A stretch of 42,680 nucleotides of DNA from Candidatus Hodarchaeota archaeon (GTDB taxonomy: Archaea > Asgardarchaeota > Heimdallarchaeia > Hodarchaeales > Hodarchaeaceae), in contig JAEOTC010000153.1 in NCBI GenBank assembly GCA_016840035.1, forward strand, positions 1 to 42,680, written 5' to 3'. The notes beneath the pieces are model-generated. The model searched no databases. It had not been told where the DNA came from and saw nothing but the letters and a program-made list of their open reading frames with translations. Position 1 is the stretch's first letter. Each line of letters starts with the position of its first letter. Of the stretch, positions 7,513 through 34,216 are shown piece after piece. The translations under genes and the position numbers were made by a program.

Positions 7513-9264
7513 GTGAATTCCGTAGATCCACCATTTGATCGTGAATTTCTGGACAAAATACCTTCAGGTATTATTATCTTAAAAGATAGACGGATCTACT
7601 ATGCGAATACCAAAGCTCGGCTAGATCTTAATATTCCCACAGATCATCGTGCTCTTTCTGTTGAACAGTTCGTTGAATTCCTTGCACCTTCTGAAAGAGA
7701 AAAATTCGCACGGATCATATCTGAAAGTAATACCCCATTACCAATGGAATCTGAATGGCAAGCGATCCTACCAGATGGTACCTCGACTTGGGTTCAAGTC
7801 AGAGTATCTCCTATTGATGATAGACATGATCTGGTATTAATTAGACATATTGGTAAGTTAAAGCAAATTAGGGCTGACCTTGATGCAACCCAAAAACAAT
7901 ATCATGATTTATTCAGTAAATCTCCAAATTTCCTATTTATATTTAAAAATGGATGTATTGATTATTATAACAGAGCTTTTGTGGAGAAATTAGGATATTC
8001 AGAGGAGGAAATAGAGGAGAAAAAATGCCTTCCAACTTTTTTTGTATCACCTGAGCATAGGGCAAGAATCGCGTCTTATCTCTTAGAGACTAAGCGTGAC
8101 TTAATTACTGGGAAAATAAATGGTAAAGATAGTATCGAATCTCAATTATTCTTTCCTGATGAAACTACAGAACTTGAATTACTCTGTAAAGATGGTCAAC
8201 GTATCCCTGTAATGGCAAATGTAAGAAAATTATATTTAGAAAAAACAGCGATTGTACAAGGAATTATGGTAGATTTAACACCCGTTAAACAGTTAACAGA
8301 CTTAAAATTTGACTTTCTTACTCTTTCCCAACACACTCTCAGGACGCCGATAAGTAACCTTCGTGGACATCTAGATTTTTATCATTCCCGATTGAAAGAT
8401 GGAATAAATTCAGAAGAAAAAGATATTCTGGAGGAAAATATGTTAACGGCGTTTGGGAGAAATCTCTCTCAACTCGAAACTATAGTAAATGACTTAAGTG
8501 ATATTGCAGCTATTAGAATGGGCAAATTTAAATGTAATCTCGTTTTAGAGGATTTTGTGCCGATATTGCAGCAAGCAATTGATGGTCTTGAATTTATTCT
8601 GAAAAGATATCGAGTTCATATAGTAATGGAGTATCCTACTACCCCATTTATCCTGAATGTTGACAGACTTCGAATGATGGAAGCATTAAGAAACATCTTT
8701 GAGAATGCAATACGATTTACTGGTCATGGTACGGTGGAAATAACTTTATCTAGCGAAGAAGATAATAAAATTGCACGATTAATCTGTAAAGATTCAGGAG
8801 TTGGTATTAGCAGTGAGGATTTACATACTGTTGGGGAACCATTCATGACATTTCATTCATCAGCGAGTCAGCTTGGACTGGGAGTATTTCTAGCAAAACA
8901 AGTAATCTCTGATCATGGAGGTACTTTCAAATTTGAATCTGAAGGTTTTAACCGAGGAAGCACAGTAACAATTGAGTTACCATTAATTATTCCACCAGAT
9001 CAAGAAATTAAAATGATACAGAGTGAGACCAAAGTAAGTGAATTGATTAAACGAGCTAGTACTTCTCAAAACTATATAAAACGAATGGATGCTGTTCAAC
9101 AGCTAGGAAAGCTCGGATTGGAATCTGATGAAGCAAGAATAGAGATTCTCACAGGTTTAGAGCAAATAATCTTGCATGATCCAGACCGTACAATACGAAA
9201 CTTAGCAAGTACCCTTTATTCTAAGATTAAGTCTTCTTCAGAGGAAAAGGTTGTAAATTTCTAG
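7513..9264 (+). CDS. PAS-PAS sensor histidine kinase with a C-terminal HEAT-like repeat
   Basis: Two PAS-like regions (IYYAN...WVQV; IDYYNRAF..KLGYS.EE...KDG.RIPV), H-box QHTLRTP, N-box FENAIRFT, G1 DSGVG, G2 LGLG. Tail RMDAVQQLGKLG...HDPDRTIRNLA. No TM segment. Confidence 0.88.
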   Translation: MNSVDPPFDREFLDKIPSGIIILKDRRIYYANTKARLDLNIPTDHRALSVEQFVEFLAPSEREKFARIISESNTPLPMESEWQAILPDGTSTWVQVRVSPIDDRHDLVLIRHIGKLKQIRADLDATQKQYHDLFSKSPNFLFIFKNGCIDYYNRAFVEKLGYSEEEIEEKKCLPTFFVSPEHRARIASYLLETKRDLITGKINGKDSIESQLFFPDETTELELLCKDGQRIPVMANVRKLYLEKTAIVQGIMVDLTPVKQLTDLKFDFLTLSQHTLRTPISNLRGHLDFYHSRLKDGINSEEKDILEENMLTAFGRNLSQLETIVNDLSDIAAIRMGKFKCNLVLEDFVPILQQAIDGLEFILKRYRVHIVMEYPTTPFILNVDRLRMMEALRNIFENAIRFTGHGTVEITLSSEEDNKIARLICKDSGVGISSEDLHTVGEPFMTFHSSASQLGLGVFLAKQVISDHGGTFKFESEGFNRGSTVTIELPLIIPPDQEIKMIQSETKVSELIKRASTSQNYIKRMDAVQQLGKLGLESDEARIEILTGLEQIILHDPDRTIRNLASTLYSKIKSSSEEKVVNF

Positions 9265-9435: not shown

Positions 9436-11943
9436 TTGACTTCTGTAATTGGAGATCCAATACAACATTTGAAAGAAATGGGGTATTTTTGGATTAAATC
9501 AGATATAGGAATTTTATTAGTAAAACTCTCTGAAAAAGAGTTCTTCAATTACAAGGAGCTTAAATTTTTAAAGTTTATACGACGAGAATTAGAGAAAGTA
9601 AATCTGAACTGGCTTTATGTTTTGACGGAGGACAATATTATTGTTTTTTCACTTTTTAACGATAATTATCTCCTCTGGAACGCTATTCCAAAGAATATTT
9701 CAATCCTATTTCTATATACAATCCTTGTTAATCCCGAGCTCCAAAATCAAATTAATGAAGACTTTCTACTGGAGGCTTATCGACAGGATTTTAACGTATA
9801 TACAACGGTTTTAGAAGAGGTCAAAGACAAGAAGAGGTCAGTTGAAAATGAAAATCTCCATAAATCACAACTACCAGAATTAAATTCAATTTGTTCATTC
9901 TTTGCTTTTAAATCTCAAGTTTTACTCCGATTTGAGGAAATTACCTATAATTTTCATACAGACTCCACTAATCAGGACATTATTCGGTTTTTGAATAAAT
10001 TAGTCAACAAACCTCTCTTTGAAGAAGAGTCATCAGTTAAAATGATAGATTTTCTTTGCCTAACTCCTATATACATGCTTGAAAACCCCCCATTAGATCT
10101 TAATATCGATAAAATGCGTGGACAATATTTCACCCCCCTGGAATTAGCCTTTACACTTGTTGACCACTCATTTAATTCTCTATCAGAAAAGAAAAAGCAA
10201 TCGTTATCAAATATACTAAAACTGAAAATCTTGGATCCCGCTTCTGGCACAGGAATGATACTTTTTGTAGCATTAGAAAGAGTAGCAAATCATATCATTC
10301 AGCTAGATGAAAAAATCCCTTTCAACTCAATTTTTGATCTTCGAGAAAAGGTATTCTTCTCCTGTTTCAATGCATTTGATATCGATGATCGTGTTGTAAA
10401 CTTTTCAAGGGATTTTTGCAGATTTTTCATGTCACTACCTGAAATTATTCCAGAAAAAGCATGGATGATTATGAATCAAAATTTTCTAACATTTATGACA
10501 GATACCATAAATAATCCAAAACTTCAAAGGAAATTTGATATCATTCTGTCCAATCCACCCTATATACCATTTTCAGGACGGTTTGCCAAGAAAGTTATCT
10601 CTGAAGATGTCAGAAACCTTCTCTTAAAGATGATTCCAAAATTTATGGGAAAACGTGAGAATCTCTATATTATGTTTTTAGGCCTAGCTTTACGCCATGC
10701 ATCAAGCTTAGAACATGGGATTGTTGGATTTATCATTGACCATTCGTTTCTTGATTTAGGTTCGTACTGTGATATTCGCAAAGTGATAATCGAGGATTTT
10801 ACCTTAAAGTATATGTTGGAAAGTTATTCCTACAGGAAAGCAGTTGTAGATTTATCCATCATTATATTCCAGAACTTGAAACCACAGGATAAAGAACCTA
10901 TAGAGTATTATGGGCAGAAAGGATTGAAACACGCACCAAAATTTGAACCTACATTTCACTTCAACGACCATCCGAATTATATCTATAAAACTTATCGAAA
11001 AGAAGCTTCACGTGGCATAATCAATCAAATTAGTGAGGATACAGTAAATTTGGGGGATATTTCAAAAGTTTCATGTGGTTTGGAATACGGGAGCTTACTC
11101 AAATCACATTTTTTATTCCAAAATCAGTCACAGGATATGTATCCAGTACTTGACGGTTCCAATGGTATTCCACAATCATTTGTGATCTTCTGGGTCCCAG
11201 AAATGGACAATTCGTATGTAAAATACTCAAAAGAGTATGAAGAGTATTTGAAGAAAAACAATCTCAATCGATCAATTATGGGTAATAAGGAAGTCCTATT
11301 AATTTCAGGTGAAAAAGAAAGGTTTACTGAACCTAAAATATTTTTACGGCAAACTGCTAACAAGTTTATCATAAGTTATGATACTGAAGGTTTTTTTGGT
11401 TTAAGAAACTTGCATACAATACATAATTTTCAAGCTCCATTTTCTCCCTATCTTATTATGGGAATTCTTACTTCTAAATTTGGGAACTGGCTAGGTAAAG
11501 AGCTCAATATTATTCGATCGACTGGTACTAATGGAAACCGCTATCCCCAAATTAGAATCAGGGATATGAATAACTTTCCCATAATTGATATTGAAAAAGA
11601 AAGTAAAAATACTAATCCTCAAAGAATTAAACAATTAGAGACAAAAACACGCGAAAATATTCAGATCGGAAGCAAAATAACAACAGTTTATAGAAAAATA
11701 TGGAGTTTAACGTTATCTCAAACAGATAAAAAACCATTCAGTTCACAGAAGAGATTGTTTCATTTTTGTAAAAATCCAGAAAAATTTTCATTCTTTTCCA
11801 AGCAAGCACAAAGAGATCTCTCAATTCTTTTGAATGACCTAACCAGAAACGAAAAATTAATTCAGCATAATCAAATGATTATCGATCAAATCATTTTTAA
11901 AATGTATGGGATAGCAAAGGAAGATTGGGAAAGAATTCTCTAA
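9436..11943 (+). CDS. Type IIG/Eco57I-TaqI-like N6-adenine DNA methyltransferase with C-terminal target recognition domain; true start may be upstream
   Basis: GQYFTP, motif I ILDPASGTG, motif IV FDIILSNPPY, TaqI-C-like PKIFLRQTA...ISYD...LTSK...YPQI. The frame is open upstream to 9265. Confidence 0.85.
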   Translation: MTSVIGDPIQHLKEMGYFWIKSDIGILLVKLSEKEFFNYKELKFLKFIRRELEKVNLNWLYVLTEDNIIVFSLFNDNYLLWNAIPKNISILFLYTILVNPELQNQINEDFLLEAYRQDFNVYTTVLEEVKDKKRSVENENLHKSQLPELNSICSFFAFKSQVLLRFEEITYNFHTDSTNQDIIRFLNKLVNKPLFEEESSVKMIDFLCLTPIYMLENPPLDLNIDKMRGQYFTPLELAFTLVDHSFNSLSEKKKQSLSNILKLKILDPASGTGMILFVALERVANHIIQLDEKIPFNSIFDLREKVFFSCFNAFDIDDRVVNFSRDFCRFFMSLPEIIPEKAWMIMNQNFLTFMTDTINNPKLQRKFDIILSNPPYIPFSGRFAKKVISEDVRNLLLKMIPKFMGKRENLYIMFLGLALRHASSLEHGIVGFIIDHSFLDLGSYCDIRKVIIEDFTLKYMLESYSYRKAVVDLSIIIFQNLKPQDKEPIEYYGQKGLKHAPKFEPTFHFNDHPNYIYKTYRKEASRGIINQISEDTVNLGDISKVSCGLEYGSLLKSHFLFQNQSQDMYPVLDGSNGIPQSFVIFWVPEMDNSYVKYSKEYEEYLKKNNLNRSIMGNKEVLLISGEKERFTEPKIFLRQTANKFIISYDTEGFFGLRNLHTIHNFQAPFSPYLIMGILTSKFGNWLGKELNIIRSTGTNGNRYPQIRIRDMNNFPIIDIEKESKNTNPQRIKQLETKTRENIQIGSKITTVYRKIWSLTLSQTDKKPFSSQKRLFHFCKNPEKFSFFSKQAQRDLSILLNDLTRNEKLIQHNQMIIDQIIFKMYGIAKEDWERIL

Positions 11944-11947
11944 TTTT

Positions 11948-13048
11948 TTACTTTCTTCGTCGACGCCTCTTTTTTCTCTTCTTCGGTGGTTTTTTTGCTT
12001 TAGTTTTCTCAATAACATCTTTTTGTTGAACTATTTCGGATAAATCCTTTGCTACCTCATCTCTAATATCATCAGGAGTAACGGATAACGTGCTTTCACT
12101 CATTCCGATATCCAGATCGTTATCAGACCGTATTTCTTGCCTTATGTCTTTAGAAGCTTGCCGAAGCACAGCTTTAATTTCAGAAACATCTGGTGATTCA
12201 TCAAAATCTAAATCTACGTCAGCAGTTTCAAATTCCTCTTTAGGTATTTCTTTCCTAAATAATCCTAAATCTAGTATAGATTCTTGCGCACGGCGTAATT
12301 CCTGTCTTAATGCAGTCGCATCAACGCTTTCTTCAAGTTGCTTATCAGTAAGTCGGAGCTGTTGTTCACCTATTACTTTTAATCTTTCTTTTGGAATATT
12401 TAATCCCGCGCCAGAGACTAAAGCATCCAGTACTGGAGTGAAATCTTCAAATATTGAAGTATCAATTACCTCTTGAGTAATTTCGTTAGTGAACACTTCA
12501 GAGAACCTTAGGGCAAGTAAATCAGTCAATTCGTCAATCGGCTTGGTTTGTTCACTGTCACATATGACAGCAACAGTCATTTCTCCTATTCTTCGAACAT
12601 GAATGACAAGTTCATCCGTCGTAATTTTATCTATTAATCGTCCAGTGACTTCAGCCATCAAATCAACTATTCCTGTCACTAGCCCTGCAAAAATAGTATC
12701 AGGAAACTGCAATCCAGAATAGGATCGAGAAAGTAAGCATGTACCAGCAGAGGAGATAAACCAAACATAATGAATCACAGGAGCCGATTTTTCAACTTCA
12801 TATCCTGCTACTGGTGATCCCATACGAACAGCATACGTAATATCATCTGCAGATACAGTTTGGCTATTTCTTTCTCTACTACGTGTCACTGCTCCTGCAG
12901 CAATTTCTCTCGCCCTATAGGTTAATAATTTATTCAGAGCAACAGCTGCATTCTGAGATACACGTTTTATTCCTGTTTTTTTTATTATTCGTCTACACTC
13001 CGCAGTTGTAAAAGCTAAATGAATTGACTGTGATTTCTTTCTGGGCAT
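11948..13048 (-). CDS. Histone-fold / longin-domain fusion with an acidic region and K/R-rich C-terminal tail
   Basis: Probable ATG at 13048 (MPRKK). Archaeal histone fold RRIIKKTGIKRVS..A...L...AREIA..A...TVSADDI..AVR; longin-like VWFISSAGTCLLSRSY...FAGLVTGI...RFSEVF...FEDF...LD; tail KKPPKKRKKRRRRRK. Confidence 0.8.
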   Translation of the reverse strand: MPRKKSQSIHLAFTTAECRRIIKKTGIKRVSQNAAVALNKLLTYRAREIAAGAVTRSRERNSQTVSADDITYAVRMGSPVAGYEVEKSAPVIHYVWFISSAGTCLLSRSYSGLQFPDTIFAGLVTGIVDLMAEVTGRLIDKITTDELVIHVRRIGEMTVAVICDSEQTKPIDELTDLLALRFSEVFTNEITQEVIDTSIFEDFTPVLDALVSGAGLNIPKERLKVIGEQQLRLTDKQLEESVDATALRQELRRAQESILDLGLFRKEIPKEEFETADVDLDFDESPDVSEIKAVLRQASKDIRQEIRSDNDLDIGMSESTLSVTPDDIRDEVAKDLSEIVQQKDVIEKTKAKKPPKKRKKRRRRRK

Positions 13049-13267
13049 TATTACGTGTATCTCCCGCAAAAGAACAAATAAGGCGATTAATCTCTGACAG
13101 AATAATCAATAATATCGAATACTGTTTTAGTTTGACTGATAAATGTATTGATGATTTAAAAGCTTACTTTTATATGCTTTATTCGCAAATATTCGGGTTT
13201 AATATTCAAATACCCTTCTTAATGTCGGCGAATCCAAAAATATAACAAATTTTAGGTAGGAAAATTA

Positions 13268-33407: not shown

Positions 33408-33926
33408 CTATATCATGTTCTTTACTAGATCTAAGAACGCTTGTTCAACATTCTCTCCAGTAAGAGCGCTAGTATCATAGTGTGTCTGTATATCCTCAAA
33501 ATGACTTATAATAAAAGCATTAACATCGTCTTGGGAGATTGACTTTAATTCAGTTAAATCTACTTTATTACCAATAAGAACAAAAGGAATTTTGTTCGTT
33601 ATAGTCTTGATATCAGAGATCCATGTGTGAAGATTATCTAATGTTGCAGGAACGGTTAAGTCAAAAACTAATAATGCTCCAGAGGCATTCTGAAAGAACT
33701 TTGTACGAAGATTACGAAAGAGCGTTTGACCTGCAATATCCCAAATCTGTAAATTTACTTCTCTATCATCATCTAATTGGACTGCTTTAGAAAATATTTG
33801 TACTCCAATTGTAGCTTTATAATCTGCCGAGAAACCGCCCGTTACAAATCGATTTATAAGAGTAGTCTTGCCTACTGCACCCTCGCCAGCGAGAACTACC
33901 TTATATTTTCGTGTATCTTCGGCCAT
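33408..33926 (-). CDS. Rab-like small GTPase
   Basis: KVVLAGEGAVGKTT (G1), YKATIG (G2), LQIWDIAGQ (G3), GNKVD (G4), TSALTG (G5). Probable ATG at 33926. Confidence 0.95.
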   Translation of the reverse strand: MAEDTRKYKVVLAGEGAVGKTTLINRFVTGGFSADYKATIGVQIFSKAVQLDDDREVNLQIWDIAGQTLFRNLRTKFFQNASGALLVFDLTVPATLDNLHTWISDIKTITNKIPFVLIGNKVDLTELKSISQDDVNAFIISHFEDIQTHYDTSALTGENVEQAFLDLVKNMI

Positions 33927-34216
33927 GGCTATCTCTCCACGTTCCACTAAATTAGAGTCTATTGTGAGTAGTTTGACTAATAATTGTTAAATTTATTTCC
34001 TTTACTATTAAGACTCCAAGGAACCTAAGATTTAAAGTAATTCTAGATAATTTAACCTATGATACACATTTCCAACCGAACACAAGTCTCTCGCTTTAGC
34101 TATCTTTGTCTTTAATTAATGATATCGCCTTAAGGGAATCTTGAAGAAACCTTTCTCTTAATGGAAAAGAAATTATCAAATAAAAACGAAAATAAATTCA
34201 AATTTGGTTTAAAAGT

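Follow-up and report, generated by a model that had tools for sequence, protein, structure and literature searches.

A conserved Hodarchaeal protein that joins an archaeal histone fold to a longin domain

Can a single archaeal protein physically join chromatin to small GTPase signaling? The question is raised by a gene on the reverse strand of a 42,680-nucleotide stretch of DNA from a Candidatus Hodarchaeota archaeon (contig JAEOTC010000153.1), referred to below as the window, whose translation had suggested an N-terminal histone fold fused to a longin domain and followed by an acidic region and a basic tail. Among known archaea, Hodarchaeales stand closest to eukaryotes, and histone folds and longin domains are building blocks of eukaryotic chromatin and of GTPase-driven trafficking. 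A conserved histone-longin protein is one of very few hints as to how both systems might have touched before eukaryotes arose, with the caution that the histone fold may serve only as a dimerization handle.

The open frame that encloses the gene spans 11948..13069 on the reverse strand, with the stop codon at 11948-11950. Because the aligned N-termini of homologs begin with MPKKK or MSKNN, the ATG at 13048 is taken as the start, giving a protein of 366 residues (P0001). The acidic region and the lysine- and arginine-rich tail are present in the translation as originally described. The gene and its parts, with the evidence for each, are:

11948..13048, reverse strand: whole histone-longin gene, 366 residues plus stop codon (open reading frame (ORF) list, translation)
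12818..13012, reverse strand: histone fold, residues 13-77, α1-L1-α2-L2-α3 (PF00808, NCBIfam archaea_histone, HMfB match, model helices)
12404..12778, reverse strand: longin domain, residues 91-215 (order of secondary structure, Foldseek, VIA-align)
12254..12352, reverse strand: conserved helical segment, residues 233-265, LTxxQLEExVDAxALRxELRRAQ..LxxF (alignments A1 and A2, introduced below; model helices 235-241 and 244-260)
12194..12244, reverse strand: acidic tract EEFETADVDLDFDESPD, residues 269-285 (translation; poorly conserved)
12125..12193, reverse strand: second conserved helix, residues 286-308, DVxEIKAVLRQAxxDIR (alignment A1; model helix 286-308, local confidence up to 82)
11951..12013, reverse strand: polybasic tail KAKKPPKKRKKRRRRRK, residues 346-366 (15 of 21 residues lysine or arginine, net charge +14)

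Both folds named in the original prediction are confirmed, by profile and HMfB matches for the first and by structural comparison for the second, and the nucleotide ranges that it gave for them are right to within a few codons. An AlphaFold2 model built from 30 homologs has a mean predicted local distance difference test (pLDDT) score of 63.7, rising to 70-83 within both domains, and the 13-residue linker between them is modeled with low confidence. Residues 13-77 form an archaeal histone fold: CBFD_NFYB_HMF (PF00808) matches residues 16-74 with E 3.5e-8 and 34.1 bits (cut-off 21.4), the NCBIfam family archaea_histone (NF043032) is reached with 51.4 bits (cut-off 50), and the fold aligns with residues 6-65 of HMfB (1a7w) at E 9e-7. 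The model displays the corresponding three helices, with a long central one, at residues 15-24, 32-59, and 67-77 (pLDDT 72-79).

Following the linker, residues 91-213 are modeled in the order β-β-α-β-β-β-α-α (pLDDT 70-83), and the DSSP assignment on the model (E91-99, E104-109, H117-135, E141-143, E148-154, E157-163, H169-191, and H198-213) corresponds to the longin topology β1-β2-α1-β3-β4-β5-α2-α3. Foldseek matches this domain to sigma-adaptins, zeta-COP, TRAPP Bet5/Trs23, and Mon1-Ccz1 from E 2e-5, with a probability of 1.00. Comparison with solved longin domains by VIA-align, each over 120-127 aligned residues, gives Z scores of 14.2 for the first longin domain of Fuzzy (9rs9_A; root-mean-square deviation (rmsd) 2.4, 122 aligned residues), 14.2 for TRAPPC4 (2j3t_D), 13.0 for VAMP7, 12.7 for Mon1, 12.5 for Sec22b, 11.4 for Ykt6, and 11.3 for SRX, a domain of the signal recognition particle (SRP) receptor alpha.

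A Roadblock/LC7 label for this second domain was also considered. Roadblock chains (LAMTOR2 and MglB) reach Z scores of about 11, aligned over residues 89-192 only (97-103 residues), and PF03259 (Roadblock/LC7) has no match in the protein at E values up to 10. The Roadblock topology is α-β-β-α-β-β-β; here, no helix lies between the linker and β1, and two helices are found at the C-terminal end. The topology, the partial alignment, and the missing profile match speak against the label, and the domain as modeled is a longin rather than a Roadblock domain because no helix precedes its first strand and two follow its last. The protein reaches no Pfam longin-family profile above cut-off. Its relatives also score below threshold, the best being Fuz_longin_1 with 26.0 bits against a cut-off of 26.1, and distant relatives give weak matches to Fuz_longin_1, Longin, Sybindin, and Clat_adaptor_s.

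The fusion itself is widespread within one archaeal order. A search of 5.8 billion proteins returned 66 protein clusters with E values from 1e-62 to 1e-228, nearly all of 350-500 residues and covering 80-97% of the query. They stem from NCBI, JGI, ENA, and Logan assemblies, one of them on a 3.16-Mb contig (CP070760.1), and those with given names are called Hodarchaeales or Heimdallarchaeota. In a survey of 301 genomes sampled across the phylum, 18 of the 20 genomes of the protein's own family contain a strong full-length match; the two others have completeness values of 87% and 71%. Both genomes of a sister family in the same order encode the fusion as well, at 37-38% identity. Outside the order, these 301 genomes yielded no strong matches, only weak ones to the longin part. 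The original prediction had named a chimeric assembly, or orthologs that are always split, as grounds for giving up the architecture. With the same architecture in 66 clusters from several assembly collections, on contigs of up to 3.16 Mb, and in single uninterrupted frames of 350-415 residues in the own-family and sister-family genomes, both are excluded, and misjoined ORFs are so improbable that we give them next to no weight. The fusion is real and conserved.

An exhaustive HMMER search adds further divergent fused relatives at 24-38% identity, including HeimC3_22820 of Heimdallarchaeota LC_3 (P0078, L036:5001-5903). Pfam assigns no histone fold to this protein; its model shows helices at residues 18-27, 35-61, and 70-78, followed by a longin domain with the same order of strands and helices (pLDDT 69-91). 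HeimC3_22820 may thus be, going by the model, a histone-fold protein that the published tally of ten LC3 histones does not include. Two other matches, P0065 and P0072, look like fragments. A soil metagenome protein (P0079, L083:2803-3711) was considered as a form without the histone fold and rejected, as the first half of the fold is encoded upstream in the same frame, beyond a single stop codon. This in-frame stop inside the histone fold could mark a broken copy or a sequencing error.

The genome to which the window belongs has one copy of the fusion and several other longin-like paralogs. Its six histone-fold loci include only this one fusion, together with five canonical short histones. One of the canonical histones (L002:1486-1767, contig C69; 93 residues) begins with a lysine-rich tail about 25 residues long. 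Two tetratricopeptide repeat proteins of 737 residues each in the same genome (L079:355-2568 and L080:446-2659) match the histone-longin profile weakly (E 6e-7 and 3e-5).

Which part of the protein has been kept most strictly? Conservation was expressed as mean pairwise identity in two alignments, one of 30 close relatives (A1) and one that adds distant relatives (A2). The longin domain reaches 79% in A1 and 44% in A2, against 59% and 29% for the histone fold; in these alignments, conservation along the protein peaks in the longin domain and not in the histone fold. Invariant residues cluster in its β2-α1 stretch, SGLxFPDTIFxGLxxGI...EVTGR, in both alignments. The helical segment at residues 233-265 is present in every fused relative, the most distant included, whereas the helix at residues 286-308 (71% in A1 versus 21% in A2) is conserved in the close subfamily only. 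The acidic tract at residues 269-285 has a mean identity of 34% in A1 and 14% in A2.

The polybasic tail is likewise limited to the closer subfamily, where every tail has a strong positive charge (+13 to +16); the C-terminal ends of distant relatives are acidic or neutral. Hence, the acidic tract and basic tail, put forward originally as features of the protein, are confined to one subfamily. In three relatives (P0048, P0051, and P0037), the tail has grown into long repeats of the KKP/AKP type, which appear to be in the style of nucleic-acid-binding tails. Charge along the protein is distributed in segments: the histone fold carries +10 (isoelectric point (pI) 10.7), the longin domain -12, residues 269-345 -14, and the last 21 residues +14. 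No transmembrane segment or lipidation motif was seen in the sequence.

The histone fold was compared with HMfB position by position, both in the protein itself and in 30 relatives. In HMfB, we take R52, K53, and T54 to be the DNA contacts of loop L2, R52 and D59 to form a clamp, and L46, H49, and L62 to form the dimer-dimer (tetramer) interface. Framework residues are kept throughout the family, with G26, R29, and D69 equivalent to HMfB G16, R19, and D59. At L2, the protein has S62-Q63-T64 in place of R52-K53-T54, with D69 retained, such that both the set of DNA contacts and the R52-D59 clamp are incomplete; all five canonical paralogs in the same genome have G(R/K)KT. Among the relatives, the R52 equivalent (position 62) is arginine in 27 of 30, the K53 equivalent is glutamate or aspartate in 25, and the T54 equivalent is glutamate in 17. 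The tetramer positions L46, H49, and L62 are replaced by R56, E59, and Y72 in the protein, so the dimer-dimer interface is not preserved; in the family, the H49 equivalent is glutamate in 25 of 30 and the L62 equivalent glutamine, lysine, or arginine in 26 of 30. Members of the family also differ in the charge of the fold, from +11 to -6 net.

The histone fold of the family has thus largely lost its L2 DNA-contact and tetramer residues, a pattern that fits a fold retained for pairing, not for wrapping DNA. The physical link between chromatin and GTPase signaling that had been drawn from the architecture is not supported as stated and can be put forward only conditionally. The alternative offered alongside it, a histone fold acting as a dimerization module, agrees better with the conservation pattern; its second half, an acidic tract acting as a histone chaperone, does not, the tract being poorly conserved.

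Related longin domains are linked to GTPases more directly. Longin domains of the same subfamily are fused to Arf-like GTPase domains at two loci (L023 and L024; Arf E 1e-23 and 7e-19), and a cluster of 376 Asgard proteins in the ESM Atlas combines the longin fold with Arf or Ras domains. In the genome of the window, a Ras-family GTPase gene on contig C11 is followed, after a gap of 4 nucleotides, by a gene for a 256-residue longin-like paralog (L081:1846-3223), which looks like a GTPase-longin operon. Other partners occur as well. A longin-like domain in genome G004 (L025:5623-6756) is fused to the zinc-ribbon output domain TackOD1 (E 2e-31), in the usual place of a receiver domain, and weak scores point to winged helix-turn-helix (wHTH)-like ends on longin proteins P0083, P0085, and L013; a word-based homolog search with P0085 recovered P0085 alone. 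An ESM Atlas feature search with residues 216-345 of the histone-longin protein gave no usable match.

The immediate neighborhood of the gene in the window was examined for further hints. The fusion gene lies between the divergent pair gatE-gatD and a large convergent gene for an N6 DNA methyltransferase (9436-11943, forward strand), which is followed by a gene for a PAS histidine kinase (7513-9264, forward strand). The methyltransferase, of 835 residues, carries N6_Mtase, Eco57I, and TaqI_C domains and an N-terminus of 225 residues to which no domain is assigned. The arrangement of fusion, methyltransferase, and histidine kinase is also seen in relatives at 51-52% identity and in genome G301; it was not found on the 3.16-Mb contig CP070760.1. 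Because the genes are convergent, this neighborhood says little about function. The GTPase that had been named as a candidate partner (33408-33947, reverse strand; Ras E 4e-44) is a Ras-family gene 20 kb away from the fusion gene, with no conserved linkage detected.

A different arrangement is found in the two sister-family genomes (G265 and G286; L026:3299-5859 and L027:1765-4265), where the fusion gene ends a same-strand cluster of an Arf-like GTPase, a SerK/SbnI-like ParB-fold kinase, and the histone-longin protein. Gaps of 68 and 17 nucleotides separate the genes in one of these genomes; in the second, the genes overlap. A Pfam match to ParB_N (E 9e-4) had suggested that the middle gene encodes a DNA-binding protein of the ParB type. 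This reading was rejected, since the match of the gene product to PDB 5x0b (E 4e-18) identifies it as a distant relative of the free serine kinase SerK/SbnI, and it therefore provides no link to DNA; against NF053625 it scores 97-119 bits, far under the cut-off of 380. About 10 genomes carry its f1 homolog at a distance of 8-25 kb from the fusion gene, a case of regional synteny among close relatives only; in the genome of the window, this homolog would fall just past the contig start. A nucleotidyltransferase-like gene also lies near the sister-family cluster.

An Arf-like GTPase whose paralog sits in that cluster is 88-100% identical within the protein's own family. On contig C112 of the window's genome (L034:3133-9056), two adjacent Arf-like GTPase genes, one of them 88-100% identical across the family, lie beside a ubiquitin-system cluster (E1 ThiF, ubiquitin-like, E2, and JAB) and a threonyl-tRNA synthetase gene. 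The GTPase gene near the LC_3 homolog is probably there by chance: it is of a different, Ras-like type, at 29% identity, and separated by a reverse-strand gene, although the relative at L083 shares the arrangement. Synteny with histone genes is absent from most loci, with one histone gene 4.6 kb off at L038. A canonical histone and a stand-alone longin paralog on contig C3 of the window's genome were dismissed as a linked pair, being 3.8 kb apart with unrelated genes between them.

How might these parts work together? We tentatively propose that the protein is a modular adaptor. Its N-terminal histone fold would most likely be an obligate "handshake" dimerization handle, whose partner would be a second copy of itself or a different histone-fold protein, and probably not a DNA-wrapping, polymerizing histone. 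Dimerization would join two copies of the strongly conserved longin domain, and the pair would present a binding platform whose most plausible ligand is a small GTPase. Eukaryotic TRAPP, Mon1-Ccz1, and Fuzzy-Inturned use paired longin domains as just such a platform, on which a small GTPase is bound and regulated. Proteins of the close subfamily would, in addition, be held on DNA or on another polyanion by the linker-histone-like polybasic C-terminal tail, with help from the basic histone fold. We put this combination of a histone-fold-dimerized longin platform and a tail tethered to DNA at somewhat less than an even chance. The two folds with their order, conservation, and taxonomic distribution, and the GTPase fusions and operons of related longin domains, are observed, whereas dimerization, DNA binding, and GTPase binding are steps that we infer.

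Several observations weigh against the proposal. One relative, P0076, appears truly to lack the histone fold, so the module of longin domain and helix can exist without it. Within the protein's own family, the fusion gene is not adjacent to a GTPase gene, and the Arf-like GTPase of the sister-family cluster is a paralog specific to that family: its closest match in the genome of the window (58% identity) has a closer ortholog elsewhere in the sister genomes. A GTPase gene lies within about 2.5 kb of the fusion gene in 2 of about 7 lineages, which is suggestive only because each genome has about 48 GTPase matches. Longin domains also serve roles unrelated to GTPases, for instance in SNAREs, adaptins, and SRX, and any binding of DNA or of a GTPase by the histone-longin protein is a prediction. 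The histone fold of P0001 is, moreover, strongly basic (+10) and keeps the equivalents of HMfB R10, K13, and R19; direct DNA contact is thus possible in its clade. A bolder reading, in which a chromatin-resident longin platform acts at the nucleoid to recruit or regulate a small GTPase of the Arf-like type, perhaps together with a SerK-like kinase such as the one encoded in the sister-family cluster, seems to us doubtful.

That same basic fold is also what recommends a true chromatin histone variant, which would pair with canonical Hodarchaeal histones on DNA, cap or interrupt hypernucleosomes as a "capstone" owing to its missing tetramer contacts and its bulky longin domain, and display that domain on chromatin. 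The fold scores above curated histone cut-offs, has a pI of 10.7 with the equivalents of R10, K13, G16, and R19 kept, and finds five canonical short histones in the genome as possible partners; its changed tetramer positions are expected of a capstone, and capstone variants have been discussed for Asgard chromatin (10.1101/2025.05.24.653377). We nevertheless consider such a variant unlikely, given the loss of the L2 contacts (SQT versus GRKT in the five canonical paralogs), the neutral or acidic histone fold of many family members, a histone fold less conserved than the longin domain, and the scarcity of synteny with histone genes. A role without chromatin, with the fold as a dimerizer only, would make the protein a cytosolic or membrane-proximal longin regulator of a small GTPase, be it like a guanine nucleotide exchange factor (GEF), like a GTPase-activating protein (GAP), or like a scaffold, with its polybasic tail on acidic membrane lipids. 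Polybasic tails of eukaryotic small GTPases bind such lipids. The conservation pattern favoring the longin domain, the GTPase associations of related longin domains, the top structural similarity to longin domains of Rab GEFs, and the acidic ends of distant relatives that lack the basic tail would all agree with this role. It strikes us as improbable to a similar degree, however, as the KKP/AKP-type repeat tails of relatives look nucleic-acid-binding rather than membrane-anchoring, this clade has a highly basic histone fold, and neither a transmembrane segment nor a lipidation motif is seen. The succession of basic, acidic, acidic, and basic blocks along the chain could also suggest a histone chaperone-like or histone-buffering protein, whose acidic regions (the longin domain and residues 269-345) would take up basic histones or the tail of the same protein. 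Conservation, however, is lowest in the acidic tract and falls on the longin fold and the helices instead of on acidic runs, and no chaperone family is matched in Pfam or NCBIfam; we regard this as very unlikely. The protein is a tractable target, being small, soluble-looking, and single-copy, with candidate partners at hand.

With respect to known systems, the protein resembles HMfB/HHoB and the five canonical paralogs of its genome in its histone fold, which retains the equivalents of G16, R19, and D59 and is about 30-35% identical to HMfB. It differs from them in length (366 residues versus about 70, with 290 extra residues), in L2 (SQT versus GRKT), and in the exchange of the tetramer histidine for glutamate. 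With the longin platforms of Fuzzy-Inturned (CPLANE), Mon1-Ccz1, TRAPP Bet5/Trs23 (TRAPPC1/C4), and BLOC-3, it shares the same fold over the whole domain (Z scores of 14.2 for Fuzzy, 12.7 for Mon1, and 12.1-14.2 for TRAPP; rmsd 2.4-3.2 over 122-126 aligned residues), but no more than 9-17% of the sequence is identical, and one longin domain, not three, is joined to a histone fold and a basic tail. In the longin SNAREs VAMP7, Sec22b, and Ykt6 and in SRX, as in this protein, the longin fold (Z 11.3-13.0) is followed by helical sequence. The histone-longin protein, however, has no heptad motif of SNARE length, no membrane anchor, and no NG domain: its conserved helix spans about 33 residues, compared with a SNARE motif of about 53 residues plus anchor, its C-terminus is polybasic and neither hydrophobic nor lipidated, and the Pfam synaptobrevin, SNARE, and SRP profiles find no match.

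Closer relations are found among Asgard archaea. Fusions of longin domains with GTPase and with TRAPPC3/V4R domains have been published (PMC10933270), and the longin domain described here belongs to the same archaeal subfamily, its residues 86-232 matching L023, L024, and others with blastp E values of 1e-8 to 1e-14. The partner there is a GTPase, V4R, TackOD1, or wHTH domain, whereas here it is an N-terminal histone fold, with the longin domain internal. The original prediction knew of no characterized protein with this architecture, and none was found; the architecture itself, however, had already been mentioned in one sentence of "Nucleosomes at the Dawn of Eukaryotes" (Genome Biol Evol 2024; PMC10919886), as a Hodarchaeales "histone fold fused to a Roadblock/LC7 domain" whose function is stated there as unknown. 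The order is the same, and P0001 is the sole histone-fold fusion in its genome; the two families are almost certainly one, and the gene in the window is an additional member of a family already in print. Two later Asgard chromatin preprints and a structural-clustering preprint of 2026 do not treat the fusion. Where the published sentence names a Roadblock/LC7 domain, topology and full-length structural matches here give a longin domain; that paper also says nothing of the conserved helices, the tail found in one subfamily, the missing L2 and tetramer residues, or the genes nearby. The present analysis thus adds to this family the longin assignment, the asymmetry in conservation between the longin domain and the histone fold, the L2 and tetramer substitutions, the tail specific to one subfamily, a cryptic member in LC_3, and the sister-family cluster with a GTPase and a SerK-like protein.

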